A stretch of 57,691 nt of DNA from a virus (IMGVR_UViG_3300044631_002111:1-57691), one strand, 5' to 3'; counted from the stretch's first letter, positions 12,285 to 54,197 are shown. Notes: generated by a model from the letters alone, not told the origin. Made by a program: numbers and translations.

Positions 12285-12884
12285 TTATCGGTGATCGAAG
12301 ACGTTGCCCCAATGGCCTTCTAGAGCGTGGGCCAAAGACATTTCAGGCTCATCGGCGGCGGACAAAATTCGTTCGTAATGCGACACTGGACGACGGTGGA
12401 CCACGTCCCGCTTTACATAAAACTGAGCGCCTATTTGGAACGGAACTCCTTCCGGGTAGGTCCTCCGCTGCCACCCCAAACTGAGGACATGATCGGTGGC
12501 GCTCCACGGGGTAACCGGATGCCCCGGCCCCGAATATTTTCCTCCCACGTAACAAAACGGATGGGGGAAGGACGGCTTTCCGTATAGAATCTCCAACAAA
12601 GGTAGGACGTCATGGGGTACGTGGGGCCAGGGATTGGCCTGTAAAAAAACCGTCACGTCTGACAGGTCCTCGTAGTGACTGACTATGTAGCGCAGATAAT
12701 GGCCCGCCTCCCTGCCGGAATTGGGGACAGAGATTTCTTCATCGGCCGAGGAACCGACTCCCGAGCCCCCCGAGTTGCTCACAACTATCCGGTATGACCG
12801 ATCTTCTTTGGGCGGCAGGTAATCCGTCCATTTCAATAACTCGCCGTGGCGAGCCAACAATAGGGTGTAACTATGGGTTTGCAT
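12285..12884 (-). CDS. DUF3431-like protein (putative glycosyltransferase-like)
   Basis: N.GREAGHYLRYIV..YE.L...TVFLQA.P..H and GAQFYV.R..V..RP...Y motifs, and 'LE..W..VF' at the end. Confidence 0.7.
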   Translation of the reverse strand: MQTHSYTLLLARHGELLKWTDYLPPKEDRSYRIVVSNSGGSGVGSSADEEISVPNSGREAGHYLRYIVSHYEDLSDVTVFLQANPWPHVPHDVLPLLEILYGKPSFPHPFCYVGGKYSGPGHPVTPWSATDHVLSLGWQRRTYPEGVPFQIGAQFYVKRDVVHRRPVSHYERILSAADEPEMSLAHALEGHWGNVFDHR

Positions 12885-15865: not shown

Positions 15866-15886
15866 GGGCGGCGGTATATTATACCT

Positions 15887-28118: not shown

Positions 28119-29918
28119 TCAAATAGAAAATTTGCTAAACTTGATGGACTTGCCCGAGTTAGCGGCGGAGAGCTTTCCAAAAGTAATTTTACGCTTCACC
28201 TGAATCGAGGTCTCTTGACGCTTCATAGTTACTGTCATGCCACCGAATCCGAACCTTTGACGACACAGCTCAATCAAAATCATGGCCGCGTCGGCCAAGT
28301 CAGGTGATGCGCCGGTCCGGGCTTTCATGTCCGTCTTGCTTTCGACCTCCATGCGGATGGACGCCCCTTTCTTGGTGGAATACTTCCGGGCGCACATCTC
28401 CTTGGCCAGTTCGCGGTCTATGCCCTTGAGCTGCCCGGTCCGAATCAGCTCTTTGGCCCCGAACCACAACTCGGAAACCCTGTTGGTATACCGCTCGCTG
28501 CTAAGAGCGGAGTCGGAGATAGAGACAGGAAGTTCGCTAGCCTTGCCGCCGAACTGAACGCCCAGAACTTCGGGCGACCAGACCATGGAGACGACGTCCC
28601 CGAACGGACCACCAGCTCCAGACTTGTCGTAGGAAGCGCACCAAGGTTCCACTCCCTCCGCCTCACAGGCGTCTTTGAACTGCTGGACGATTTGTTCAGT
28701 CCGGGTTCGTTTCTTGTCGTGAACATTGTCCTGAAGAAGTTTCCGGTGGGTAAACATGAGTGTCGGAATCCCGTCCCGCGAGATGCCGAACTCCCCAAAT
28801 TGTATTGGAGTGCGGTCGCCTCCATTGGTGAAGGCCGGGTCCAGGCCAGCTATCTTGGTCGGCGGCTCTAGCCAGATCGCCTCCCCGTCCGCCCCTGCCG
28901 AAATGATCTCCGTCTCAGAGTAAATGTTGTCCTCGTCTCCCGTGGGGGCCCAGTACCCGCGGAACATGCGGTAGTAGGCCAGCGAGTTCTCCCCAAACCG
29001 AGCTTTGGCCTCGTCCAACTTAGCCTGGGTGACAATCCAGGGGTAAATCGTCTTTCCGGTCAGCACGTTCGGGCTGCGCTCCCCGTCAAACCGGATACAC
29101 AGTCCGCGCTCAGTGTCCCACTCCTCTTCCAGGGGGCTGATCGACTGCCAACCGCCCTTTGGTTTGGCTAAAATACCGAACGCGTCAAAGCGGCTGGCGG
29201 GGTTCCCGATCCCGATGAACTGGAACTCGGGGTTTAAGGACAGATTCGACGCCGAGGCCTCCAAAATTGACTCGGAAAGCTCGGGCATCTCGTCAGCGAT
29301 AACAATGACGCGCCGATTTTTGAACCCGATCAATTTTCCCACGGCTTCTTTTTCTTTTTTCTTCTCGGCCGCGATGAGCGTGATGCCGCATTTGTCCGAA
29401 GTTCCGCCCGTTCCGTCCTCGAACCGGATAAGCCCCATGGAATCGACAAGTTTCCCCGGCAGCGGAGGTGCAGCTTGCCAGTAATCCCGAATACTCCCCC
29501 AAATGCGTTTGCGGGAATCCTTCAAAGTGGTCGAAGTTACGAGCACCATCGTGTCATAAGGCGCGGCGATGAAATTCACGATCGCCCACACGGCGAAAAA
29601 ATCCGTTTTCCCAGACGAAGCACACCCGGCCACGGCGAGGTATTGATTGGCGCAGGACGCTTCCAACATCCGTTCGGCCCATGGGTGCCAGACGAAGGGT
29701 TTCGGACCGTCTTCCGGCCACAGAGCTGACACGATGCGCTTGAAATGATGCTCGGGCGTCTCCCCGCCTTTCTCCAGCGGCATCGGATTGCGAAACGAAA
29801 ACAGTTCGCGGTTGAATTGGTCGATCTTTTTGCTCCACCAACGCCCGTACTGCCACTCTTTGTCGGAGACATCGACGACACGGCCATCCGCCGTGCGAAT
29901 TTTTCCTCGTGATGACAT
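28119..29918 (-). CDS. terL: Terminase large subunit
   Basis: Walker A GCASSGKT, Walker B IVIADE, GIGNP coupling motif, nuclease GLDPAF and SPDLADA. Confidence 0.93.
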   Translation of the reverse strand: MSSRGKIRTADGRVVDVSDKEWQYGRWWSKKIDQFNRELFSFRNPMPLEKGGETPEHHFKRIVSALWPEDGPKPFVWHPWAERMLEASCANQYLAVAGCASSGKTDFFAVWAIVNFIAAPYDTMVLVTSTTLKDSRKRIWGSIRDYWQAAPPLPGKLVDSMGLIRFEDGTGGTSDKCGITLIAAEKKKEKEAVGKLIGFKNRRVIVIADEMPELSESILEASASNLSLNPEFQFIGIGNPASRFDAFGILAKPKGGWQSISPLEEEWDTERGLCIRFDGERSPNVLTGKTIYPWIVTQAKLDEAKARFGENSLAYYRMFRGYWAPTGDEDNIYSETEIISAGADGEAIWLEPPTKIAGLDPAFTNGGDRTPIQFGEFGISRDGIPTLMFTHRKLLQDNVHDKKRTRTEQIVQQFKDACEAEGVEPWCASYDKSGAGGPFGDVVSMVWSPEVLGVQFGGKASELPVSISDSALSSERYTNRVSELWFGAKELIRTGQLKGIDRELAKEMCARKYSTKKGASIRMEVESKTDMKARTGASPDLADAAMILIELCRQRFGFGGMTVTMKRQETSIQVKRKITFGKLSAANSGKSIKFSKFSI

Positions 29919-29985
29919 TTTTTTCAGCCTGTCACCATTCCGTCACCACTTTGCTCCGATTTCTTCACTTACTCTGTAAAAAAAC

Positions 29986-30010
29986 CGGAGCCTACGGGGC
30001 TCGAACCCGC
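29986..30010 (-). other. attP: attP core = 3' end of a tRNA (T-arm plus acceptor 3' strand, probably tRNA-Asp)
   Basis: Minus strand reads GCGGG-TTCGAGC-CCCGT-AGGCTCC-G; there is no 5' half; it lies ~160 bp upstream of the integrase; discriminator G and GGAG acceptor fit tRNA-Asp. Confidence 0.8.
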
Positions 30011-30047
30011 ATTCGCATACACCAGTTCCATATAACTGCATTAGGGT

Positions 30048-30170: not shown

Positions 30171-31334
30171 ATGAAGTTAAAAAAGACCAAAAACATCGTG
30201 TATCCTTTCGTCCAAAAGACCCCCTTCGGGAGCGTGAACATCTACCGACAGGGTCAGGGCAGAACAAGATACTTTGTCACCTGGACGGGGGAGAACGGGC
30301 GGCAGAGAGCGGCCTTCGACAACGAAGTCACAGCGCACCAACGCGCGGAGGAGATCATCGAAGATTTCCGTCGCGGAGTATCCTTGAGAAACAACATCAC
30401 CTCCGCCCAAGCGGCTCGGATTGCCGAATACAGCTCCGTCCTATCCGAGCACAACGTGTCCATAGGGGATGCGGTGAAATTTTTCGTCTCGCACGTCACC
30501 AACACAGCAAAAACGAAGAAAGACGCCTTACTCGCGGCACACGAATATCTCAGCTCGTTCGAGGAACAATCGTCCAAGAACCGGCACTACTCGACAGTCC
30601 GCTCGATCTGCATGCAGTTCGGAAGAGCTTTTAGGAAAACTCTCGACGCTATAACGCTCAAAGAACTCGACACCTACTTGCGGGGAATCTCGTCCTCCGG
30701 GAGAACTCGGAACAACCATCTCGGCACGCTCAAAACTTTTTTCAAGTGGGCGCAGAAATGGGGGTATATGGCTACCGGTGAGATGGAGATCGACAAGATC
30801 GACCAGTTTAAACAGGCCATCTCTCCCATCGAAATCTTCACCCCCGCGGAAATGCGCAAGCTGCTGGCGAATGCGAGCGAAGAGCTGTTGCCTGCCCTGG
30901 TTGTCGGCGCTTTCGCGGGCGTTCGCACGGCGGAAATCAGCCGAATGCACTGGGAGGACATCCGCTTGGATGAAAAAGTCATCATGCTCGACTCCCAAAA
31001 GACTAAGACCAAGCGGCGCCGGATGCCCCTGATCTGCGACAACTTGGCGGCTTGGTTGGAGAAGCTCAAAGGGGACAAGACGGGCCCAATACGCTGCGGC
31101 CAGACCAAGTTCCACCACGACAGGGCCGCGCTCTGCGAAAAGGTTGGGATTCCTTGGAAAGACAACGGGCTTCGCAAAAGCTACATTTCCTACCGCATGG
31201 CCCAGCCGGACGCGGACGCCCAGAAGGTTTCCAAGCAGTGCGGAAATTCCGCGGACATGGTGGAGGAGTGCTACAAAGGCTTAGTTCCTCCAAGCGCAGC
31301 AAACGAGTGGTTTTCCCTCTTACCCCAGCAATGA
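30171..31334 (+). CDS. int: Tyrosine integrase
   Basis: AGVRTAEI (Arg I), KTK (Lys), NGLRKSY (H-x-x-R box variant), CGNS and Tyr in EECYK; likely start ATG 30171. Confidence 0.92.
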   Translation: MKLKKTKNIVYPFVQKTPFGSVNIYRQGQGRTRYFVTWTGENGRQRAAFDNEVTAHQRAEEIIEDFRRGVSLRNNITSAQAARIAEYSSVLSEHNVSIGDAVKFFVSHVTNTAKTKKDALLAAHEYLSSFEEQSSKNRHYSTVRSICMQFGRAFRKTLDAITLKELDTYLRGISSSGRTRNNHLGTLKTFFKWAQKWGYMATGEMEIDKIDQFKQAISPIEIFTPAEMRKLLANASEELLPALVVGAFAGVRTAEISRMHWEDIRLDEKVIMLDSQKTKTKRRRMPLICDNLAAWLEKLKGDKTGPIRCGQTKFHHDRAALCEKVGIPWKDNGLRKSYISYRMAQPDADAQKVSKQCGNSADMVEECYKGLVPPSAANEWFSLLPQQ

Positions 31335-43714: not shown

Positions 43715-43736
43715 GGGCCAGAAGGTCATGGGCCGA

Positions 43737-44099
43737 TCAGCTCAGGTGTTTGAGCTTGTAGAGGGTCGAGTTGACCAGGGAGGCGATCTCGTCCACGACG
43801 TTCTGCAACTCTGATTCCTTGCCGACCGACTCCCGGTATTCGGTAAGGTAGGAGCGCAGCGACTCGGCAAACTGGACCGCGTCGTCCGGGGACGTGACGG
43901 CGTAGGAGGGGTACTTCTCCACGATCCCGTTGAGCCCTTGGTAGCTCTCGATAAGCGTATCCACTAGCCCTGGGAGACCTTCGTAGAGATCCCCCAGAGC
44001 CTTGTGAGCGGCGTAAGACTTAGTCTTAAGGTGTAGAATATGTGCCTGGGTGGAGGCGTGCAAGAGCGTGGCGAAAAATTCAGGAGCGGATTGAGACAT
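43737..44099 (-). CDS. Dps/ferritin-like four-helix protein (DUF5856-like)
   Basis: H..H..T.SYA.H.AL...YE......D...E.YQG; own promoter TTGACT-16-TAGCCT at ~44136-44109. Confidence 0.75.
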   Translation of the reverse strand: MSQSAPEFFATLLHASTQAHILHLKTKSYAAHKALGDLYEGLPGLVDTLIESYQGLNGIVEKYPSYAVTSPDDAVQFAESLRSYLTEYRESVGKESELQNVVDEIASLVNSTLYKLKHLS

Positions 44100-44370
44100 G
44101 ATGGAACAAGGCTAGTGGTATATGCGGCCAAGTCAATACTTTTCCTTAAAAGATCAGCTTACCTCCCACCCCGCCCTAGTTTAACATAAATCGAAGCTAA
44201 TTGCGGCGAATACCGGCCGATTCTCCGCAGGATGTGTAAAAACAAGTTGGACAGAAGATAGAGCTTTTGATCGGGGGCTATTGCAATTTGATACCCCGAC
44301 ACCCAGATGCGGAGCAATTTGAGACAGGGATGCAGGGATTCAGGGGTACAAACGGGGGACAGCTATCGAA

Positions 44371-44668
44371 TTGGGTGGATGTAATTCTGCTGGGTGGATG
44401 AGAAAATTTTACATCCACCCAAATTAAGGTGCTGATTTTGAGACGTTTGTGATCGCTGGGTGGATGAGGGGGGTTAGGTGGGTGTGTTTTGAGTCCTTAT
44501 ACATAATGGGTGTATGAAGGAAGATGCCTTATTATTTTTCTCGCGCGCGTATTTTAAAATTACATCCACCTCATCCACCCAAATTGCATAAGTCGTTGAC
44601 CATCAACATCGCATTTGGGTGTATCAAGCGTTTTTTCTCATCCACCCAAACCCACCCTCATCCACCCA
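44371..44668. repeat. Iteron-like CATCCACCC(A) repeats in both orientations (ori or packaging-site candidate)
   Basis: TGGGTGGATG at 44372, 44391 and 44457; CATCCACC(CA) at 44412, 44563, 44572, 44639 and 44659; AT-rich centre; non-coding. Confidence 0.8.
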
Positions 44669-45024
44669 ATACTGATAACTCGCTTTTTATCCTGTCAACT
44701 GGCCCCCGGCGGGGCGTTGTCTGTTTTTGCGGCCGGACCAATCTCATGGAATTCGATGGGGTATCGCCGCCCCCCCCTCAACTTGGTATGTGCAACCCTG
44801 TCGCCTTGATGCCTTGATTTTGCGCGCTATGGCCTCCAGGAGACGTTTTCATGGTTTGAGGCGCCCGTTGGAGCCTTCCGGGGTCTGAACACGTCCTGGG
44901 GCCAAAATTTTTTTACGGAGGGGTATATTAATTCGTTCTGTTTAAAGACACCCCCTGCACCCCCACCCCCCGGCGGGGGTCAATACAGAGGTGGCCCTCC
45001 ACTATCTTTCACGTATAGGCCCGG

Positions 45025-45040
45025 TATCCGATATCGGATA
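45025..45040. repeat. 16-bp palindrome TATCCGATATCGGATA, copy 1
   Basis: Extends to 20 bp (GG...CC). Confidence 0.95.
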
Positions 45041-45144
45041 CCCCAACAGGCCGCGCCACCTAACTACAGGGGCAGGTGTGAGCGGGACACGTGACCGGAA
45101 GCAATAACGCCAACGGCGCGCAATCCCCCGCCCACACCTATAAC

Positions 45145-45654
45145 ATGAAGAAAGCGAAAACCGAAAAGAAGGCGCGCGCTGTCGTCGCCGAAACGAAAAC
45201 CGCTGGCCTCCTCGCCAGCACGGCGCGCATCCTGTCGCGCCTTGTGGGCGGGCTGGTAAAGATCGCGTCCGGCGAGGATTCTCTCGCCGCGCACGTTGAA
45301 AAGACCAAGGCCACACTCAAAGCGCAGATTGATGCGGCAGTCGAAGACTGGCGCGCAATCAAAGCGGAACACCGCGAACCCGCCGAGCGGAAAGCGTTGG
45401 CGCAAAGCGTTTATAACGCTTTGACAAAAGAGCACGGCATGACGCCACAACGCGCTTCCGAGGTTCTGAAACGCATTGGCGTGCAGATTCGCGAAAAGGC
45501 GAAAACCGAGGCGACGAACGTCTCGGCGGAAAATATCGAACAGCTTTTCATGCTGGCCGATAAGTTAGAGAATGGGGACGGGCGCCGCGTTTGCGCGCTT
45601 CTCTCCCGCGCTTATGGGAAAGGCCGGAAGGTCTACCCTGCGAAACGCGACTAA
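45145..45654 (+). CDS. Basic helical hypothetical protein (possible DNA binder)
   Basis: 169 aa, isolated unit with its own terminator; HTH-like GMTPQRASEVLKRIG. Confidence 0.65.
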   Translation: MKKAKTEKKARAVVAETKTAGLLASTARILSRLVGGLVKIASGEDSLAAHVEKTKATLKAQIDAAVEDWRAIKAEHREPAERKALAQSVYNALTKEHGMTPQRASEVLKRIGVQIREKAKTEATNVSAENIEQLFMLADKLENGDGRRVCALLSRAYGKGRKVYPAKRD

Positions 45655-45656
45655 TC

Positions 45657-45693
45657 AAAAAGACCCTCGCACCTTCGGGTGCGGGGGTTTTTT
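45657..45693 (+). terminator. Rho-independent (probably bidirectional) terminator
   Basis: ACCCTCGCACC-TTCG-GGTGCGGGGGT followed by a T-run and preceded by an A-run; between convergent genes. Confidence 0.9.
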
Positions 45694-45790
45694 CGTGCCA
45701 AAATCACTGTCATGTTCACTGTCACCAACTGTCATCTACTTTCACTGCTCGCGCGCGGTTGCGCTCCTCTGCTCCTCTGCTCCTCGACTA

Positions 45791-46426
45791 TTATCCGATA
45801 TCGGATAAGTCGTTTTGCTGCTCATCGGGCTGGCAACCCGTAGTTTCACTCTGTGGAGCATCGGATGGTGACGCTTTGGTGACGGATTCGGCCTCATTTT
45901 CGACGAATTCGCCCTCTATGATCTCATCCTGCAAACTTGTCTTTAGCCTCTCGTTGACGACCTGCAACTGGACGATGGTGTTGCTCTTGCCCTCTGTCTC
46001 GTCGATGCCCAGCAACCGGCGCATCATCTTATCCGCGATGTCGTAGTCCTTCCAGTTGCGCGGCGGGGCGATGATCGTCTGGTCAAGAAGTCTGGCCATC
46101 TTTAAGACCCCTTTGCTCCGGTAGTCCTTGGTGGCCTTGTCGAAGTCGAGCGCACCTGTTGATGTCGATAACGAGTTTGCGGAGCGCGCGGCTCCTTCTA
46201 TTTGTTCTGCAAGAGCATTGTTTTCTGTGACCCTGTAACCCTGCATCTCTGCGACCTTGTCGAGCTTGTTCCGAACACGCTTCGGAGTGTTCCATTTGTA
46301 GCGCATACTCCGCATCCGGATGGTCGCCTGATTTATTCCGAACATCCGTGCTACATCTGCCAGAGAAGTTCCCTTCTCCACCACCTTTTGAATCTCGTCC
46401 CATGGGACATCTAGTGCTTTGGGCAT
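45791..46426 (-). CDS. terS: Terminase small subunit-like HTH protein
   Basis: W..I.....G.SL..VA..FGI...TI..R..R..W N-terminal HTH, 'RRLLGID' and an acidic tail; promoter TTGACT-17-TATTCC upstream. Confidence 0.6.
   Translation of the reverse strand: MPKALDVPWDEIQKVVEKGTSLADVARMFGINQATIRMRSMRYKWNTPKRVRNKLDKVAEMQGYRVTENNALAEQIEGAARSANSLSTSTGALDFDKATKDYRSKGVLKMARLLDQTIIAPPRNWKDYDIADKMMRRLLGIDETEGKSNTIVQLQVVNERLKTSLQDEIIEGEFVENEAESVTKASPSDAPQSETTGCQPDEQQNDLSDIG
45792..45807. repeat. 16-bp palindrome, copy 2 (encodes SDIG-stop of the TerS-like gene)
   Basis: Exact match. Confidence 0.95.
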
Positions 46427-46493
46427 AATTTGGACAGGTCTGTAAAGCTCTGCAACTTGTTGTAAAAAAGGTAGGAATATGGTGTATTAAACC

Positions 46494-46522
46494 TTGAGTC
46501 AAGCACTACCCCATGTTAATAT
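46494..46522 (+). promoter_or_regulatory. Strong sigma70-like early promoter, divergent from terS
   Basis: TTGAGT, 17 nt, TAATAT with extended -10 TG; GGTGTATTAAACC at 46481-46493 abuts the -35. Confidence 0.7.
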
Positions 46523-46630
46523 GGTTATCGTAAGGTAAGAGTTAGATCAGACCCTTACGATCCTTGAAATTTGAAGGCCAAGTAAGTCCGAGGCAAGTGT
46601 GCCAACGCTGAGTCGATTGACTGCCAGAAG

Positions 46631-46646
46631 TATCCGATATCGGATA
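46631..46646. repeat. 16-bp palindrome, copy 3 (inside the ncRNA candidate)
   Basis: Exact match. Confidence 0.95.
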
Positions 46647-46904
46647 ACTCCGGTGAAGCGTGGGTGGCGGGCGCCGAGCACGACCCGACGATACTGCATG
46701 GCCGAGAAGTGAGATCAGACCAGCATCAGCAAAAGTTGGTTCCTGTGCCGACCCGCATTGAAAGCGGGCAGCAACCCTAACGGGTTCAAGTCGTGTAGCG
46801 CGAAAGCGTGTGACGGGCGGATGGTGCAAAGCCCACAGGATGCGCGGAAGTGGATAGCTGGTAGACCGGACACTCGCATTGGGTTGCTCCCAACCTCCGG
46901 TGCT

Positions 46905-46920
46905 TATCCGATATCGGATA
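46905..46920. repeat. 16-bp palindrome, copy 4 (inside the ncRNA candidate)
   Basis: Exact match; extends to CTT...AAG. Confidence 0.95.
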
Positions 46921-47310
46921 AGTAGATTAACCTTGTAGCGTCGATTTATTCACGCGAACGGATTGACGTCTGGCAGACGTCTGAAACAGCAAAGCGTGGA
47001 ATGTCTGGCCAAGATGGCAGCAGACTCGCACAACGCTCATTCGCCCTTCGCGAATAGCAAGTAAGCGTGGAAGCCCTCGGCCCGAGTTGTATCCGAACCC
47101 CCTTTCCGAGCCTATCGGCTCACCTAAAAAATCAGCGGGAATCCCATACAAGTCGTTGAGACGTCGCGTAATTAAAGCAAAAGCAAAAGTCATTAGATCA
47201 CCCCCTGCTTCGAGAGAGGCAGGGGCTATCTGGTGAATAAGTGTTACCAGAGACGCTCTGCCGTCAGGCAGGGTATATTCAACCACAACCTAAAAACGAA
47301 AGATCATACC

Positions 47311-47553
47311 ATGAACAAACAAATGCACCGCTTCACAGCACCGCTGGAAAGCGACGACTGGAAACAACGTCTCGCCGCCTACCTCGCGCAAGACGACGAG
47401 TCGTTGGAAGCGCAATACCACAAGAACGACACCGCCTCGGAACCCGATCCGGAGCCGTTCTACTTCGTCGCACCCGCTGTCTCCGAACAGCGTTTCGCGG
47501 TTCCCACCAACGTGTTGTCCGCCTTGGACACACTCAACAAGTCGGTCGCCTAG
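47311..47553 (+). CDS. Early hypothetical protein
   Basis: 80 aa, GAAAGA leader. Confidence 0.6.
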   Translation: MNKQMHRFTAPLESDDWKQRLAAYLAQDDESLEAQYHKNDTASEPDPEPFYFVAPAVSEQRFAVPTNVLSALDTLNKSVA

Positions 47554-47558
47554 TCCGG

Positions 47559-47574
47559 TATCCGATATCGGATA
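47559..47574. repeat. 16-bp palindrome, copy 5
   Basis: Exact match, intergenic. Confidence 0.95.
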
Positions 47575-47599
47575 AGTAACCCAAAATTACTTTCACACT

Positions 47600-47839
47600 A
47601 TGAGCACCAACTTCCCATCAACCGGCATCAAACCGCAAGACGTTGCCGCGGAACTAGCACAAGCCATCCGCGACCACCGCCAGCGCAAAACCCTGCGCCT
47701 TGTCGTCCGAGACAACGACGGCAGCAACCAATGCTTGCCGCCCTCGGCGTGGATGATCCTCGCCGACCGGATCTCCAACCGCGCCATCGACAAAGTCATG
47801 GACGTGGTGGCCAAGCAACGCATCGGCCTTGCCGCCTAA
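47600..47839 (+). CDS. Early hypothetical protein ending in LAA
   Basis: 79 aa. Confidence 0.65.
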   Translation: MSTNFPSTGIKPQDVAAELAQAIRDHRQRKTLRLVVRDNDGSNQCLPPSAWMILADRISNRAIDKVMDVVAKQRIGLAA

Positions 47840-47944
47840 TCCCATGACCACCATCGAACTCACTCAAACGATGCTGGAGATCGCCGTGTTCCTCGTCATC
47901 CCCGCCGTGTTTGTCGCGGTGTGGGTCACCAACGATTAAGCCCT

Positions 47945-47960
47945 TATCCGATATCGGATA
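47945..47960. repeat. 16-bp palindrome, copy 6
   Basis: Exact match, 7 nt before ATG 47968. Confidence 0.95.
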
Positions 47961-47967
47961 TCTCACC

Positions 47968-48645
47968 ATGAAACATCTGTTCTACCAACCGCTCAAAGTT
48001 GACGCCAAAGACCCCGACGTTCTGTTTTGGGGTTGTTTGCATTACGGCCACGACCCCAAGTGGGATGTCCCACTCTGGGCGCGGCGCGGCTATGCTTCGT
48101 CGGCGGATCACGATCAAGGCATCATAGATGCCTGGCGCACCAAGGCCACCGACCGCACCATAGCTTTCCTGCTCGGAGACAATGTCTTCGGCTACGGAGG
48201 CGAAGAGAAGTTCCGTTACCTGCTCGACACGCTGCGCTTCAAGACCGCGTATGTTTTGTCGGGCAACCACCACGCCGGATGGAAGCAAGTGTTCGAGAGC
48301 TGCGAAGGTAATACCCTGCAACTCGGCGACGACAAGTCCGTGGTCTTTGTCCCCAACTACTTGGAGACATACGTCAACGGCCAACCCATCGTCCTGTCGC
48401 ATTATCCGATAGCTTCATGGAACGGCCAAGGCCACGGATCGTGGATGCTCCATAGCCATTGCCACGGAGAACTCTACAAGAGCGACCTCGGCAAGCTGCT
48501 CTACCGCGCCAAGATCAAGGACGTTGGTGTGGACTGCTGCCCTGCACCCCTGTCGTTTGGCGAACTGCGACACCAATTCCGTGAAGAGTCGGTCAGCTTC
48601 GACCATCACACCCCGAACACTCGGACTCCGTTTACCCCGCAATGA
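47968..48645 (+). CDS. Calcineurin-like metallophosphoesterase
   Basis: CLHYGH, LLGD, GNHH, HYP, HSHCH, DVGVD motifs. Confidence 0.85.
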   Translation: MKHLFYQPLKVDAKDPDVLFWGCLHYGHDPKWDVPLWARRGYASSADHDQGIIDAWRTKATDRTIAFLLGDNVFGYGGEEKFRYLLDTLRFKTAYVLSGNHHAGWKQVFESCEGNTLQLGDDKSVVFVPNYLETYVNGQPIVLSHYPIASWNGQGHGSWMLHSHCHGELYKSDLGKLLYRAKIKDVGVDCCPAPLSFGELRHQFREESVSFDHHTPNTRTPFTPQ

Positions 48646-48893
48646 ACTGCCCACAATGCGGCGCCGGTATTCCGGCTGCTCGCACCAACCTCGGCTTCTT
48701 CATCTGCGTGTCTTGTGCTCAACAGCGTCCGGTTCCCAAATACAAGGGAGCCATGACCTACGATCAAAAGACCGGAGGCGCCGTCACCCTCATGTCGCCC
48801 GCCGAGTTCACCTACTTCAGGAAGGTGACTCGTCGCCGTGGGCAGCAAAGCGTCCTGCGCAACGTGTTACACGCAAACGGACGCGCCGTCTGA
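48642..48893 (+). CDS. Small Zn-finger protein (DksA/TraR-like C4)
   Basis: CPQCG..IP.AR......CVSCA. Confidence 0.6.
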   Translation: MNCPQCGAGIPAARTNLGFFICVSCAQQRPVPKYKGAMTYDQKTGGAVTLMSPAEFTYFRKVTRRRGQQSVLRNVLHANGRAV

Positions 48894-48899
48894 AACCCT

Positions 48900-48915
48900 T
48901 ATCCGATATCGGATA
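48900..48915. repeat. 16-bp palindrome, copy 7
   Basis: Exact match, intergenic. Confidence 0.95.
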
Positions 48916-48982
48916 ACTCTGGCAAACGCCGTCCCGCCAACAAGTGGACAGCAAAACCTAACCTAGAAAGACCAACACCAGT

Positions 48983-49420
48983 ATGAACGAATCCATCGAA
49001 TACTCCGATCTGTATTCTGGCGTCCAATACTCCAAGGATCAGCACGACGAGCTTGTCGCGCCGCTTCTGCGCGTTATCGAAACCATCCCCTCGGTCGTTC
49101 GCGACGAGAAGGGGAGTGTCAAACTCGGCGAGCCGATCATCGCCGACCTCTTGGGGAGCTACCCCATGACCATCGTGCGATTCCGTCCGAGCATTGTCTT
49201 GACGCTCCAACTCCAAGACGACGGCGGCAAGCCGTATGTCATCGGCAAACTCAAAAAGTTCCACGAACTGCGCCGCGCAGAAAATGGCGACGTCATCAGT
49301 AGTGCAAACGAGACCATTGAATTGGGGCCGTTGTATCCGCGGGAATTGGAACGTCTACCCGAACTTGTCGCCAAGCTGGAGCAGACAGAAGTCCCGAATC
49401 TCTTATCCGATATCGGATAA
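48983..49420 (+). CDS. Early hypothetical protein (ends SDIG inside the palindrome)
   Basis: 145 aa. Confidence 0.65.
   Translation: MNESIEYSDLYSGVQYSKDQHDELVAPLLRVIETIPSVVRDEKGSVKLGEPIIADLLGSYPMTIVRFRPSIVLTLQLQDDGGKPYVIGKLKKFHELRRAENGDVISSANETIELGPLYPRELERLPELVAKLEQTEVPNLLSDIG
49404..49419. repeat. 16-bp palindrome, copy 8
   Basis: Exact match. Confidence 0.95.
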
Positions 49421-49481
49421 CTCTGGCCTCCGCCATCCCGCCAACAAGTGGATGGCATCTAACCTAGAAAGAAAACGAACC

Positions 49482-49676
49482 ATGACCTTCGAGTCACCAA
49501 CCAAACAACCGAACCGCCGCGCCTTCATCTGGAGACCCGGCTGCAAGCGTCTCGTGCCCGAGACGACCCGCAAAACCCAGCACTCCTTCTCCTTCCTACC
49601 GGATGCCGAGATCGAGCGCTACGTCAGCGCCGATTTGGCGCAGGGTATCATCAACCGCAACCCTAAAAAGCACTAA
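49482..49676 (+). CDS. Early hypothetical protein
   Basis: 64 aa after a CCTAGAAAGA leader. Confidence 0.55.
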   Translation: MTFESPTKQPNRRAFIWRPGCKRLVPETTRKTQHSFSFLPDAEIERYVSADLAQGIINRNPKKH

Positions 49677-49851
49677 CCCACATGAAGAAGAAATCCCCAA
49701 AGCAGGGACAACCCCTCAATTCAACCGGACAGAAATGCACCTGCCGCAAAGGCGTTGAACGCAACAACTGCCCCCACTGCGAAGGCACAGGATGGCGCAT
49801 CAATTTCCGCGCTGTGTTCTTCAACTTCCTATCCGAACTCGACGAATACCA

Positions 49852-50316
49852 ATGAGCAAAAAACTCACCAAGAAAGCTCTGTTGCAGAAGGCCAAAGCCC
49901 GACTCATGGGCGACGAACCGACTGCTGCCGAGATGTTCCTCCTCGCCCACAAGTTGGGGATAAAGTCTGCCAAGATCGAATTCAGCGGTTCCGGTGACGA
50001 CGGCGATTACTACGACCCAGAATACGAAGGCGGCGAAGACCCCAAGATCACAGACGCCAGCGGCAACTGGGTCCCCAACCCCAAGTATGGGGAAGACCAC
50101 CAACGCTTGGACAAAATGGTCCAAGAGACGGCGGAGAACTGGGTCCAAAGCACCGACGTCGATTGGTATAACAACGAAGGCGGCGGAGGTAACGTCGCGT
50201 TCGACTTCAAGACCGGCGGAGTGACCGGATACATCTTCCAATACGAGCAGGTCGAACACGAAGCCGCTAGCGGGGAGTGGAACCTGCTCGAAGACAAAGA
50301 AGAGGGGGACGAGTAA
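49852..50316 (+). CDS. DUF6878-like protein
   Basis: GI....IEFSGSGDDG ... DWYNNEGG.G. Confidence 0.7.
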   Translation: MSKKLTKKALLQKAKARLMGDEPTAAEMFLLAHKLGIKSAKIEFSGSGDDGDYYDPEYEGGEDPKITDASGNWVPNPKYGEDHQRLDKMVQETAENWVQSTDVDWYNNEGGGGNVAFDFKTGGVTGYIFQYEQVEHEAASGEWNLLEDKEEGDE

Positions 50317-50675
50317 TGTCGCACCCCTACCACCACGCCGTTTCCTCTGCCAAGAAGTGGGGAGGAAAGGCCGAGGACTACCAGAAGATTCACGACTGGT
50401 TCGACCAGTCGAAATCATTCTATGCCGACTGGCGGCATCGCGCCCTTCGCCACCACGCGGAGGGCATTTTTATGTGCGAGTCCATCTTCGGCGTCACCCT
50501 CACCAACTCGCTCGGCCAGGAGATTCCTGTCCGTTTGATCGGCGAGCAACACGTCCGCGAGGACTTGGGCCGGATACCCAGCGTCCAAGACTGGCTCTCC
50601 AACATCACAAGTGTGCCGTGGATGCGGCACACCCCTAAAGAAGATCAACCACAACCAGTATCCGATATCGGATAA
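50316..50675 (+). CDS. DUF6915-like protein (ends SDIG inside the palindrome)
   Basis: HPYHHA.SS.KKWGG...DY..IH.WFD.SK....RHRA.RHH.EG...EQHV.ED. Confidence 0.75.
   Translation: MSHPYHHAVSSAKKWGGKAEDYQKIHDWFDQSKSFYADWRHRALRHHAEGIFMCESIFGVTLTNSLGQEIPVRLIGEQHVREDLGRIPSVQDWLSNITSVPWMRHTPKEDQPQPVSDIG
50659..50674. repeat. 16-bp palindrome, copy 9
   Basis: Exact match. Confidence 0.95.
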
Positions 50676-50710
50676 GTCACCACACCAACAACAAACTAAC
50701 TCAAATAAGT

Positions 50711-51777
50711 ATGAGCACTAACCTAACAACCGAAGAAATCGCGGACAAGATCCGCTCCTCTGCCCTGCTGGTATCTCTCCAGCTCGGCTCCTACAACCCC
50801 GTCAAGACCGACAAGACCGAGAGCCGCAAGGTCTCTTCGTCGCACGGCATCAACGACCCGAAGCTGATGAAGGTCCAGAAACACACGCTGCCCACGGCTG
50901 GCGTGCTCGACGACATCGGCAAGCTCGACACCAAGATCCGCGCTGCTGTTGACAAGTATACCGCTCCGTTTGCTCGGGGCATTGGTCTGCTTCCGGCCAT
51001 CAAGTTCTTCGACCTGCGCAAAGAAGTTAATGCGCTCTTCGACGAACGCGCCACCATGGTCAAGCGATTGGCCGATGAATACTCGATCTACTTGGACGGC
51101 GCGAAACGCAGCCTCAACGGCGCCTTCAAGGACGACGACTACCCTCCGGTCACCGACGTTGTCTCGCGCTTCTACGCCAAGCTCGACAGCTTCGCCATCG
51201 CCAACCCCAAGGACGCGCGCCTCGGAGTGCTCGGCGAAATCGCGGAGCAGATCCAAGCCGCGCAAGCCGACACCCTCAACGACAAGTTGTCCACAGTCGT
51301 GCCCTACCTGCGTGAGCTTCTGCTCAAGGCCCTCTGCCACCAGTCGGCCATCTTGCAGAACCCCGACGCCAAGCTCTACGAAACTACTTTCACGAACGTG
51401 CTGGAAGCCGCGGAGCAAGCCGAACATCTCAACATGTTGGGCGACGAACAGATCATCAACGCCGTCTTCGCCATCCGTGACCGGCTCGACCGGACCAAGG
51501 ATCAGGTGAAGGACGACGACCACATGCGCAAAATGATGTGTCCAAAGGCACAGGCAAGGCCAAAGCCAAGAAGTCCGTGGCCCCTGCCGCGCCGCTTCCC
51601 GAACCTCCTGCCGAGATCATCGTGCCCGATCTGGCCGAGGAGGATGAGCCGATTGATGAGCCGATTTCCTCCGCAGAAGTTGCGGAGATTGAACCGGAAA
51701 TCTCCGCAGAAGTGGAGACGACCGAAACCAAGGCGTCCTTCGACGCTGATGCCATGCTGGCCAAACTCGGCTGGTAG
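50711..51777 (+). CDS. DUF3150-like protein, apparently frameshifted near 51540
   Basis: LVSL.L..Y...KTDK...G..LLP...F...DYP....F motifs; the natural-looking acidic tail and stop (51777) are in the -1 frame. Confidence 0.6.
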
Positions 51778-51822
51778 GTATCATACACCACACCAACAAC
51801 ATAACCTAGAAAATCAAACATC

Positions 51823-52836
51823 ATGCAAACGATCGAAGTCACAACATCCCAACTGAAAACCGTCCTCAAGGACTGCCGTGCCGCCAAGCTCAACCCCTTC
51901 ATCCAAGGTCAGCCGGGGGTCGGCAAGTCCGCTGTCGTCAACGAGTTCGCCCGTGAGGAGAACTCCGAGTTCATCGACGTCCGCTTGGCCTACTTCGGCC
52001 CGCAGGACTTCGGCTACCCCTACCTCCACGTCAACGAGGACGGCACCAAGACTATGCGCGTCAGCCGCCCCTCGTTCTGGCCGACCACCGAGAACTCGGT
52101 GATCGCCTACGAGGAGTTCAACACCTGCTCCAAGAACGTGCAGAACTGCTCGTTGCAGTTGTTCCATGACCGCCGCCTCAACGACCACCACCTGCCGGAG
52201 GGCACGTTCCAAGTGCTGCTCGGCAATCGTGCCGAGGACCGCGTCAACATCGAGAAGCTCTCGTCCGCGGTCATCAACCGCATCGTCAACATCCGAGTCC
52301 GCCTCGACTTGGATTCGTGGATCAAGTGGGCGCAGAAACATGACGTTGACTCTCTGGTCATCGCCTTCCTGCGCTTCCGCCCCGACTTGTTGACGACATT
52401 CAACGGAGCCAAGTGGGACGGCGTGAGCAACTTCGCCTCGCCCCGCACATGGGAGAAGGCGGGCAACATCATCTCGGTGTCCACCGACCGCCACGTCCGC
52501 CACGCCCTCTTGCAGGGTGCGCTCGGTGACGGCGCTGCTGCCGAGTTCCTCGGCTTCCTCGCCGTCTACGAGAAGCTGCCCGACTTGGACGGCGTGCTGC
52601 TCAACCCGAACAAGGCTCCGGTCCCGACTGACCCTGCCACCATCTGGGCTACTTGTGCTGGCCTGTCCAAGCGCGTCAAGCCCAAGACCATGCCCAACTT
52701 CCTCACCTACCTCGACCGACTCCCCAAGGAGTTCTCGATGTTCGGGGTCAAGACGGCGGTCAACCAGAACAAGGCGCTCATGAATACCCCCTCGTTCGTG
52801 ACGTGGGTCACCGACAACCAAGAGGCGTTCAACTAA
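51823..52836 (+). CDS. MoxR-like AAA+ ATPase
   Basis: GQPGVGKS, IDVRL, YEEFN (Walker B variant), GNR.ED, NR, SPRTW. Confidence 0.9.
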   Translation: MQTIEVTTSQLKTVLKDCRAAKLNPFIQGQPGVGKSAVVNEFAREENSEFIDVRLAYFGPQDFGYPYLHVNEDGTKTMRVSRPSFWPTTENSVIAYEEFNTCSKNVQNCSLQLFHDRRLNDHHLPEGTFQVLLGNRAEDRVNIEKLSSAVINRIVNIRVRLDLDSWIKWAQKHDVDSLVIAFLRFRPDLLTTFNGAKWDGVSNFASPRTWEKAGNIISVSTDRHVRHALLQGALGDGAAAEFLGFLAVYEKLPDLDGVLLNPNKAPVPTDPATIWATCAGLSKRVKPKTMPNFLTYLDRLPKEFSMFGVKTAVNQNKALMNTPSFVTWVTDNQEAFN

Positions 52837-52841
52837 CCACT

Positions 52842-52857
52842 TATCCGATATCGGATA
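52842..52857. repeat. 16-bp palindrome, copy 10
   Basis: Exact match, between the AAA and VWA genes. Confidence 0.95.
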
Positions 52858-52877
52858 AGACAACCCATCAATAAGTT

Positions 52878-54197
52878 ATGAGCAAAGCATCAGACTTAGT
52901 CAGCCAAGCAGTCACCACGATTGTCTTGGACCACCCATTCTTCGCCACGCTGCTTCTCCAGATGCCGCGTATCGAAGACTCATCCATCCCGACTGCTTGC
53001 ACCAACGGGGTCCACATCCGCTACAACCCCACGTTCATCGAGTCGCTTACCCCGTCCGAGATCGCCGGATTGTTGGCGCATGAGGTCCTGCACCCTGCAC
53101 TCGGGCATCTCAAGCGACTACCTCCCAACAAGTTGGGCAACATCGCTGGCGACTTCGCCATCAACAACTTCCTTGATTCCTACAACAAGGAAGCCGGTGC
53201 GCGCCGCCTCGACCTGCCCGCTGGCGGTTGTCTCGACCACAAGTATGACGATATGAGTTGTGAGGAGATCCTCGCTGATCTGCTACGCAACCAACCGCCC
53301 GAACCTCCGGTCCCCACAAATCCTGGGGAAGAGGAAAGCGAGGGCGAGGGCGAAGGTGACGGCGACGGCCAAGGCGAAGGCAAGCCCGACCCCAACGGCA
53401 AATCCGGCAAGGGCAAGGGCAAGGGCAAAGGCAAAGGCAAAGGCTCCGAACCAGACGGCGGCTCCGGCCAAGACGACCCCCGCACCCAAGACGAGGGCGG
53501 CTGGGGCGAGTTCGAGGAGCAGGCTGGCTCCGAGGAGTTGTCCTCCGACGAGATGGCAAGCGAGTGGGAGCGGCGTGTTATCCAAGCAGCGACTGCTTGC
53601 AAGATGCAGGGCAAACTGCCCGGCTGCGTCGAAGCCCTACTCGACGACATCCTCGACCCCGATATCCCGTGGGAGCAGTTGTTGCAGCGGTTCTTCGACC
53701 AGACTTCTGCCAACGACTACTCGTGGCGCAAGCCGGATCGCCGGTTCTTGCCGCAGGACATCATCATTCCTGACCTGCACGACGAGACGCTCGGCGAAGT
53801 TGTAGTAGCAGTTGATACTAGCGGCTCCATCTTCTCCGATCCCGAGGCGCTCGCCTCATTCCAAGGCGCAGTCAACTCGCTCTTGGAAGGCTCCAAGCCG
53901 ACCAAGACCCACGTCATCTACTGCGACGCGGCGGTGCAAGGTAAGCCCGACGAGTCCTTCGACGGCGCTCCGATCAAGATCACTCCGCGTGGCGGTGGCG
54001 GCACCGACTTCCGTCCGGTTGGAGAATACATCGCGAAGCACAACATCACGCCTCGCGTCTGCATCTATCTCACCGACTTGTTCGGTGAGTTCCCCGACAC
54101 CGAATGGCCGTTCCCGACCATCTGGTGCGTCTACGGCAACCCCAATGGCGTCGCCCCCTTCGGCGACACCGTTCACATCAAACCTAAAAAGAAATAA
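52878..54197 (+). CDS. DUF2201-like metallopeptidase + VWA protein
   Basis: PTACTNG, HEVLH, N.A.D..IN, MIDAS DTSGS, GGGGTDF, YLTD. Confidence 0.88.
   Translation: MSKASDLVSQAVTTIVLDHPFFATLLLQMPRIEDSSIPTACTNGVHIRYNPTFIESLTPSEIAGLLAHEVLHPALGHLKRLPPNKLGNIAGDFAINNFLDSYNKEAGARRLDLPAGGCLDHKYDDMSCEEILADLLRNQPPEPPVPTNPGEEESEGEGEGDGDGQGEGKPDPNGKSGKGKGKGKGKGKGSEPDGGSGQDDPRTQDEGGWGEFEEQAGSEELSSDEMASEWERRVIQAATACKMQGKLPGCVEALLDDILDPDIPWEQLLQRFFDQTSANDYSWRKPDRRFLPQDIIIPDLHDETLGEVVVAVDTSGSIFSDPEALASFQGAVNSLLEGSKPTKTHVIYCDAAVQGKPDESFDGAPIKITPRGGGGTDFRPVGEYIAKHNITPRVCIYLTDLFGEFPDTEWPFPTIWCVYGNPNGVAPFGDTVHIKPKKK

Follow-up and report, generated by a model that had tools for sequence, protein, structure and literature searches.

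Ten identical copies of a 16-bp palindrome at gene junctions in the early region of an uncultured lake phage

Results

A 16-bp palindrome recurs without variation in the early region

We analyzed a viral genome recorded in IMG/VR (IMGVR_UViG_3300044631_002111), in which a 16-bp perfect palindrome, TATCCGATATCGGATA, recurs among the early genes. The genome record is complete, and the window (the whole stretch of DNA that was analyzed, 57,691 bp) is that entire record. A sequence-only reading of the window had described the palindrome as present in ten exact, invariant copies that are clustered within 7.8 kb, irregularly spaced, placed only where an insertion is tolerated, and located beside a region resembling a replication origin. 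Each part of this description agrees with what we found. Searches at up to two and up to three mismatches returned ten matches, all with zero mismatches, which start at positions 45025, 45792, 46631, 46905, 47559, 47945, 48900, 49404, 50659, and 52842. Shuffled sequence gave a mean of 0.02 matches at the stricter threshold and 0.08 at the looser one, and none of 100 shuffles reached ten. We found no degenerate copies with up to three mismatches, and no one-mismatch copies in particular, in the whole 57,691-bp genome. All copies fall within 45025-52857, with none in the other 50 kb, and because the window is the entire genome record, their absence elsewhere holds genome-wide. Adjacent copies are 274-2183 bp apart with genes between them, which lacks the regular repeat-spacer period of a CRISPR array. 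A T precedes six of the ten copies and an A follows eight, so that the unit is often the 18-mer TTATCCGATATCGGATAA.

A structural arm on the minus strand takes up the left 30 kb of the genome and has the large terminase gene (28119-29918) at its end. A tyrosine integrase gene (30171-31334) and an HTH_17 excisionase-like open reading frame (ORF) follow, and after this region come genes for a helicase, an exonuclease, DNA polymerase A, and a primase-like protein. A small-gene array then runs rightward to a MoxR-type ATPase and a DUF2201/VWA protein. Beside the integrase lies an attP whose sequence (29977-30011) matches the 3' end of tRNA-Asp(GTC) genes. Since the phage has both a tyrosine integrase and a tRNA-Asp-like attP, we regard it as temperate. 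We found no recognizable repressor in the 58 ORFs scanned, and no HipB/Xre-type (HTH_3) protein or hipA among the phage ORFs scanned. An iteron cluster with an AT-rich stretch (44340-44680), made up of about eight copies of CATCCACCC and its complement, is likely the replication origin. A megablast search of GenBank phages with 44000-54000 gave no match, tblastn with a 745-aa structural protein gave no close relative, and N4-like matches were limited to the MoxR/VWA gene pair.

The ten copies are distributed over this right-hand region as follows. Copy 1 (45025-45040) has the iteron origin about 350 nt to its left and, 104 nt downstream, the ATG of g37 (45145-45654, plus strand), which encodes a basic, all-helical protein of 169 aa and is bracketed by copies 1 and 2. 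The start of g37 at 45145 is supported by 12 homologues, and a canonical terminator with a T-run (45671-45695) is found downstream of the gene. Copy 2 (45792-45807) occupies the convergent g37/g38 junction, where it provides the stop codon and the SDIG end of g38 (45791-46426, minus strand). The g38 product (211 aa) has an N-terminal helix-turn-helix (HTH), and its gene is bracketed by copies 2 and 3 and transcribed away from the early operon. A non-coding spacer of 884 nt (46427-47310) separates g38 from the rightward early genes and contains copy 3 (46631-46646), 204 nt upstream of the g38 start, and copy 4 (46905-46920), which together with its flanks forms a 20-bp perfect palindrome. The remaining copies are carried at junctions of the rightward early/accessory operon g39-g49 (47311-54197, plus strand). 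Between the g39 stop and the g40 ATG, copy 5 (47559-47574) starts 5 nt past the former and ends 25 nt short of the latter; copy 6 (47945-47960) is 7 nt before the ATG of g41, which is phosphoesterase-like; and copy 7 (48900-48915) is 6 nt after the g42 stop. Copy 8 (49404-49419) gives g43 its stop codon and SDIG end, copy 9 (50659-50674) does the same for g46 (DUF6915) at a distance of 36 nt from g47, and copy 10 (52842-52857) sits between g48 (the MoxR-type ATPase) and g49 (the DUF2201/VWA protein).

No copy lies in the interior of an ORF, although 74% of 16-mer placements in the interval would do so (P ~1.6e-6, by our own arithmetic and for ORFs from an in-house codon-bias caller rather than a validated gene finder). 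Six of the ten copies overlap a stop codon or begin no more than 6 nt after one. Three of these overlap the stop itself (g38 on the minus strand, g43, and g46), the residues encoded there being the C-terminal ...SDIG, and the other three (copies 5, 7, and 10) begin 5-6 nt past it. Copies 7 and 8 have a similar right flank of about 35 nt. We saw no target-site duplication or direct-repeat flanks at the copies; the flanks instead extend the symmetry.

Palindromic sites next to an origin could be loading sites of the parS/NBS type, at which a ParB-type protein coats origin-proximal DNA, as the sequence-only reading had proposed. A 16-bp palindrome in ten copies, the first of them about 350 nt from the iterons, fits this outline. 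However, no ParA or ParB family member was matched in the 58 ORFs scanned (Pfam, PHROG), a phage with an integrase and an attP has no need for partition, and strict gene-junction placement over 7.8 kb points to expression and not to segregation. We consider the parS/NBS-like form of the proposal extremely improbable, and retain from it the direction toward a protein-binding site, which we favor below.

Hairpin, terminator, and promoter tests

Taken as RNA, the copies form hairpins of -6.7 to -13.2 kcal/mol, with copy 4 at -13.2 kcal/mol. In the minimum-energy fold of the 884-nt spacer (z-score -3.25), copy 3 is base-paired to copy 4. A search of the spacer against Rfam gave no match at gathering thresholds and two chance-level matches at loose thresholds, and the spacer shows no nucleotide conservation in the related contigs described below. 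The idea that the palindromes act as self-complementary handles of a large non-coding RNA is thus matched by the pairing of copies 3 and 4, and finds no counterpart in Rfam or in spacer conservation. As intrinsic terminators the copies fail: only the one at 45791-45808 passes a loose scan, and a T-run is lacking after the other nine. Sigma-70 promoter-like sites number 2 against 4.2 expected, with none beside a copy.

The copies are present in independent lake-water assemblies

The phage stretch is present in many lake-water metagenome runs; among the runs found, none carrying the phage was an RNA run. We compared contigs from four runs (X3, X4, X6, and X9), which are samples other than the possible source runs. 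Among the pieces listed, contigs of X3, X4, and X6 span copies 1, 2, 3, 4, 6, 8, and 10 with zero differences, and no zero-difference piece spans copies 5, 7, or 9. Because contigs from independent runs carry the copies unchanged, the palindrome is not an artifact of assembly, an origin that had been raised as a way in which the observation might fail. In a contig of X4, 43731-44105 (375 nt, all of the minus-strand gene g36, DUF5856) is missing and nine other letters stand in its place, which is a gene presence/absence variant.

X9 represents a diverged strain. At copy 1, where we read core conservation, the differences listed comprise ten substitutions in the 57 nt of 45013-45069 and none in the core (45025-45040), with flank positions 45024, 45041, and 45042 changed directly beside it (P ~0.01 for none in 16, by our own arithmetic). 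Further along, X9 has 40 nt in place of 48639-49423, so that g42, copy 7, g43, and copy 8 are all gone. The right breakpoint of this replacement is 4 nt past copy 8, and the left breakpoint is not at a palindrome. The 40-nt insert carries a hairpin, TACTCG-ATAA-CGAGTA, which differs from the palindrome by two compensatory pair swaps and a single change in the loop.

Related phages carry motifs of their own at equivalent junctions

We retrieved eight related IMG/VR contigs via the ATPase (66-74% identity). None of the eight contains this palindrome or any repeated perfect palindrome. One of them, L012, has a motif of its own, C(T)WGTCCAGWCCGGACAAGC, in nine copies within 5.3 kb. The stem that this motif can form is 8 bp long, and the loop 5 nt. 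The L012 motif is asymmetric, lies on the transcribed strand in nine of nine cases, and abuts stop codons, with a TAG variant that supplies the stop. Its sites correspond in place to those in the window, lying past the gene to the left of the g38 homologue, upstream of the g38 homologue itself, at junctions of early genes, and ahead of the g47 homologue. A stem-breaking A is present in four of the nine copies, so that the sequence is kept there more than the pairing. A second relative, L018, carries a separate co-oriented motif family, GGTTKCATCAACCAYGCAAC, and the remaining related contigs have no comparable family. The expectation that relatives would use another palindrome at the same positions therefore came true for one relative, L012, in the form of a hairpin motif.

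Searches beyond these contigs gave little that is closer. Scanning IMG/VR with g38 or with P0009 (a cluster of g38 homologues; see below) yielded three contigs that are more distant and none that is closer, nothing came from a scan with the g37 alignment, and a search of genomes with the ATPase alignment returned no prophage relatives. The exact palindrome occurs at 11 loci in IMG/VR, all single except one unrelated pair, and at no fewer than 119 loci in metagenome contigs. Among the 130 IMG/VR and metagenome loci listed, none showed kinship to the phage by blastn or tblastx.

Two further features of the relatives concern the origin and the gene leaders. Iterons of other sequence occupy the equivalent map position in L013, L014, and L015. 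Many start codons of the phage lack a Shine-Dalgarno sequence and have A/C-rich leaders upstream instead. In L012, L013, L014, L017, and L138, runs of an 8-nt periodic repeat (TGCAACCC/CCCTGCAA) lie just upstream of many starts, at up to 15 sites in L012 (examples are L138:9793-9818 and L012:5461-5498), and L017 has CTAACCAA repeats in equivalent upstream places; the leaders in the window are without the 8-nt repeat. These upstream repeats in the relatives may act as signals in leaders or for translation.

Among the relatives, no part varies more in gene content than the stretches between the copies, as would be seen if the palindromes were recombination sites that bound exchangeable cassettes, whether by homologous exchange or by a site-specific reaction. 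The X9 replacement that ends 4 nt beyond copy 8 points the same way, as do the common right flank of copies 7 and 8, which could have arisen by duplication, and the L012 homologue of g52, which sits between two L012 motifs at a different map position. T4-type phages have promoter-early stem-loops (PeSLs) that behave in this manner (PMC2839356). These PeSLs are about 100 bp long and include a sigma-70 promoter, however, whereas 16-20 bp is very short for homologous exchange and promoter-like sites here do not exceed chance. The left breakpoint in X9 is away from any palindrome, and a symmetric site would give a site-specific reaction no direction. We found no joint between two copies in the contigs of the four runs. 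The cassette proposal thus has on its side the X9 right breakpoint near copy 8 and an in-frame insertion polymorphism (see below), while deletions, inversions, or circles joining copies were not seen in these contigs, and we judge it very unlikely.

The same comparisons bear on punctuation at the level of RNA, in which a hairpin of 6-10 bp with an AUAU loop, placed after cistrons of a polycistronic early transcript, would be a processing site, a 3' protection or attenuator element, or a handle for an RNA-binding protein. The six copies at or just past a stop, the hairpin energies, and the pairing of copies 3 and 4 in the spacer fold all speak for such a role. So do the L012 and L018 families, which are co-oriented with transcription and abut stops (the L012 TAG variant even supplying one), and the compensatory hairpin that X9 has in the place of copy 8. 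Several observations are hard to accommodate, however. Nine of the ten copies have no T-run although a canonical T-run terminator is nearby; an element maintained for structure alone would not require ten copies to agree in all 16 letters; and the stem is broken by an A in four of the nine L012 copies. Moreover, the gene served by copy 2 is on the minus strand, copy 1 has a 5' location, and the bacterial arrays beside one regulator-like gene family (see below) look like DNA recognition. We view RNA punctuation as a possibility to be taken seriously, albeit a rather doubtful one.

g37, g38, and an in-frame insertion of the palindrome

We considered the products of the two genes bracketed by copies 1-3 as candidate binders. 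AlphaFold models had a mean pLDDT of 64.6 for g38 and 72.4 for g37. Foldseek searches against the PDB gave nothing below E 0.6 for g38 and nothing below E 1.1 for g37. Searching the PDB sequences with a profile gave one weak match, and g37 had no match in Pfam or NCBIfam and no PDB fold match. For g38 we obtained weak matches to terminase small subunits, which are neither confirmed nor ruled out. It is kept, at 47-57% identity, in six of the eight related contigs that we examined in detail. The HTH and recognition helices of g38 are nearly identical in L012 and L015, and the L012 motif is found in L012 and not in L015. We therefore regard g38 as a poor candidate for the specific binder, its HTH not co-varying with the motif. 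A contig carrying P0085, which is 100% identical to g37, reaches 69,131 bp and so exceeds the 57,691-bp genome, as might result from a variant of larger size, from concatemer formation, or from integration.

Homologues of g38 in metagenomes fall into 84 clusters, of which three (P0001, P0009, and P0010) have the SDIG end that the palindrome encodes in the window; several clusters closer to the g38 of the window do not. P0010 and P0009 are 92% identical, and P0010 has a seven-residue insertion, GYPISDK, which corresponds to the palindrome in another frame, as read from the protein. Hence the palindrome shows presence/absence polymorphism between close relatives, at the protein level, in the P0010/P0009 pair and in the 3 of 84 clusters.

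The palindrome accompanies a gene family in Obscuribacterales

We searched 185,579 species genomes for the exact palindrome and obtained at least 120 genomes with single matches, close to the roughly 140 that we estimate for chance. One genome departed from this background. G001, a metagenome-assembled genome of Candidatus Obscuribacterales (4.7 Mb), has ten exact and three one-mismatch copies, against zero for a control pattern. All G001 copies are intergenic, and all ten exact ones are in the 18-bp form. Within the order of G001, 13 exact copies occur in 3 of 107 Obscuribacterales genomes. Five of these 13 lie about 80-200 nt from genes of a single Zn-ribbon/winged-helix family, whose winged helix is of the DprA type (PF17782, E 1e-15) and whose N-terminus gives a sub-threshold match to IS1595 (22.9 bits against a cut-off of 75). 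No DDE domain was found in the family at Pfam thresholds. Look-alikes of the family retrieved with a protein language model form clusters that are commonest in Melainabacteria.

The bacterial sites often form arrays of two or three CCGATATCGG cores spaced 18-20 bp apart, or lie inside perfect palindromes of 26, 36, and 46 bp. For the third G001 paralogue, the palindrome is a variant one, again with the CGATATCG core. Such arrays beside the family genes have a layout that is typical of a protein's own binding sites. Family members are found on contigs C535, C76, and C731 of G001, on C21 of G065, and on C85 and C418 of G070, with several copies per genome. Each copy (Zn-ribbon, HTH, and DprA-type winged helix) is adjoined by palindrome arrays with the CGATATCG core, and the two G070 copies have common flanks, as a mobile element would. 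Solo palindromes are also scattered in bacterial intergenic DNA. The L012 motif is not enriched in the order of G001, with no more than three occurrences per genome, the same order as for the control pattern. Neither g37 nor g38 has a homologue in G001.

The palindrome could instead be a selfish miniature element, REP- or MITE-like or an insertion scar, that was mobilized by a transposase-related protein of the host, persists only at sites where its insertion does no harm, and has no function for the phage. Identical copies of which none has decayed are what such an element would leave. Its patchy occurrence (the SDIG end in 3 of 84 g38 clusters, absence from all eight related contigs), the GYPISDK insertion of P0010 relative to the 92%-identical P0009, and the solo intergenic copies in bacteria next to a multi-copy family of weak IS1595 likeness fit as well. 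The insertion is read from protein and not from DNA, however, and the family lacks a DDE domain at the Pfam thresholds. No target-site duplications are visible and the flanks extend the symmetry, ten copies crowd into 7.8 kb with none in the other 50 kb despite intergenic gaps there, and in X9 the core is kept amid high local divergence. On these grounds we think a purely selfish origin unlikely.

Restriction sites, host assignment, and other features

Many 6-bp palindromes are absent from the phage genome: GCCGGC (0 observed/26 expected), GAGCTC (0/20), CAGCTG (0/18), TTCGAA (0/15), CTCGAG (0/15), CTGCAG (0/14), ATCGAT (0/13), AACGTT (0/10), GGATCC (0/8), and CCCGGG (0/7). These absences are a strong sign of restriction-site avoidance. 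GATATC, the core of the 16-bp palindrome, is not among the avoided hexamers and occurs 17 times against 10.9 expected. We accordingly dropped GATATC as a restriction-type decoy; a decoy role of the copies in a wider sense, toward a host defense protein, is conceivable.

Among 301 genomes sampled from the class to which G001 belongs, three had a match to the attP core at E<=1e-5, all of them Obscuribacterales (86-89% identity); two samples from other phyla, each of 301 genomes, had none. This distribution agrees with a host near the G001 lineage, and the phage may be a temperate phage of Melainabacteria, as judged from these sequence matches. Melainabacteria are non-photosynthetic relatives of cyanobacteria, and to our knowledge no cultured phage of this group exists.

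The structural arm has two repeat features apart from those above. Around 15 copies of a repeat with a 36-nt period (13163-14100), whose core is ACCAACTCCGGCAC on the minus strand, lie in the minus-strand structural ORF 12871-15699, which at 942 aa is the largest in the genome. The repeat probably encodes a repetitive fiber-like protein segment. A second palindrome family, GGTATA-N-TATACC, occurs at 15873, 17188, and 36765, and two of these sites are just upstream of structural-arm genes.

Discussion

The element at the early-region junctions of this phage is dyad-symmetric, 16-18 bp long, and either strongly selected or recently copied. We tentatively favor, with somewhat less than even confidence, the reading that it is a DNA site of the operator type, spread by copy-and-paste and recognized by a dimeric, sequence-specific protein, probably encoded by the host, which gates the early operon in the manner of stoperators. 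Such a protein would recognize the 16-bp, and often 18-bp, palindrome. The binder would be a host protein of the Zn-ribbon/winged-helix family, the family that has the same palindrome beside its genes in Obscuribacterales, and probably not g38. Copies would have spread by insertion or recombination into sites that tolerate 16-21 extra bases, namely junctions between genes, the final codons of ORFs, and the regulatory spacer. The resulting ten sites, presumably of high affinity, would bracket the g37/g38 cassette and separate most early genes, and the bound protein would block both initiation and elongation along the rightward early operon, amounting to multi-point silencing as stoperators achieve it.

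We prefer an operator-type site for several reasons. First, the dyad is perfect, all ten copies are identical, and degenerate copies are absent. Second, the core of copy 1 is intact in X9 amid ten substitutions. Third, the phage is temperate and has no recognizable repressor in the ORFs scanned. Fourth, sites flank an HTH gene that is transcribed divergently and also occupy its divergent spacer, which is the usual position of immunity operators. Fifth, G001 has an excess of copies over the control, and five of the 13 copies in its order are close to the family genes. Sixth, the half-sites TATCC/GGATA are those of the HipB operator, with a different spacing. Finally, the attP matches are in keeping with a host near the G001 lineage. 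Regarding candidate binders, the sequence-only reading had listed the 45145 protein, TerS, and a host protein. Of these we find a host protein the better candidate, and the phage protein g38 loses ground through its lack of co-variation with the motif.

A number of observations weigh against an operator gated by a host protein. Among the ORFs examined, no phage-encoded binder was recognized, and g37 and g38 are without a fold or family match; the g38 helices of L012 and L015 are nearly alike, yet the motif is found only in L012. A tblastn search found no homologue of the bacterial family in the phage. G001 itself was rejected as the host: it ranks 33 of 67 by tetranucleotide composition and does not avoid the hexamers that the phage avoids. 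None of 401 genomes from the phylum of G001 has the attP core with up to two mismatches. The compensatory hairpin that X9 carries at the copy 8 site favors selection on structure over selection on the sequence preferred by one protein. An element acting at the level of RNA would account no less well for the tight link to stop codons and for the co-orientation of the asymmetric L012 motif in nine of nine copies. Likewise, the perfect identity of the copies and the in-frame insertion polymorphism fit a selfish mini-element equally well.

We compared the palindrome with known systems, and it agrees with none of them in every defining feature. The temperate Streptomyces phage phiC31 has highly conserved 17-bp inverted repeats (CIRs) in intergenic parts of its early region that are bound by the phage repressor. 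In the present phage, by contrast, neither a homologue nor a candidate for such a repressor was found, and its palindrome is shared with genomes of bacteria. Hairpin promoters of the N4 type depend on a virion RNA polymerase of about 3500 aa and are three in number at one genome end, whereas the largest ORF here is that of 942 aa.

Stoperators of Cluster A mycobacteriophages (L5, Bxb1) are asymmetric sites of 13-14 bp, oriented one way with respect to transcription and distributed genome-wide (PMC6550527); they are bound by a monomeric phage repressor, and each phage has its own motif variant (PMC6550527, PMC9283540). The likeness lies in many near-identical short sites in a temperate phage, at intergenic gaps or stop/start overlaps. 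Unlike stoperators, the sites here are perfect palindromes confined to 7.8 kb, with no phage repressor identified. T4-type PeSLs combine a sigma-70 early promoter with a terminator in about 100 bp and flank small orphan genes (PMC2839356). Like the palindrome, they are repeated intergenic stem-loops in a variable region, and in T4-type phages they are linked to insertion, deletion, and replacement between close strains; the present element differs from them in its 16-20 bp, in having no promoter part, and in leaving as little as 7 nt to the next ATG. The operator of HipB, an Xre-type HTH protein, is TATCC-N8-GGATA (PMC3376134). Its 5-bp half-sites are identical to those here, but the spacer here is N6 rather than N8, and we found no cognate Xre gene. 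REP and other miniature palindromes of bacteria (compare PMC3184786) are likewise short, extragenic, identical within a genome, lineage-specific, and variable in presence between close relatives, and they are linked to a transposase-related gene. The present element departs from them in its 16-21 bp and 10-13 copies, with no target duplication or RAYT-type gene seen. A limited, keyword-based literature search found no description of this palindrome or of this phage group.

A more specific version of the host-protein reading is that the palindrome is the cognate site of a transposase-derived protein particular to Melainabacteria. That host protein would either decide the fate of the early operon or be soaked up by the phage sites, and related phages would swap the word and keep the grammar of the junctions. 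We offer this version as a conjecture with the chances clearly against it. If it is true, phage early operons would have a modular punctuation system in which the words differ, as they do in L012 and L018, and the junction grammar is kept.

Exact multi-copy operators are rare, and they are powerful handles on regulons, on the specificity of immunity, and perhaps, in this case, on the host itself. The 18-bp word ties this uncultured lake phage to a family of proteins characteristic of Melainabacteria. If the proposed binding is real, this temperate phage would be delegating control of its early genes to a transposase-derived protein of its host. Hosts might then be predicted from cis-elements, and related phages would be keeping the positions of such elements while exchanging their sequences.

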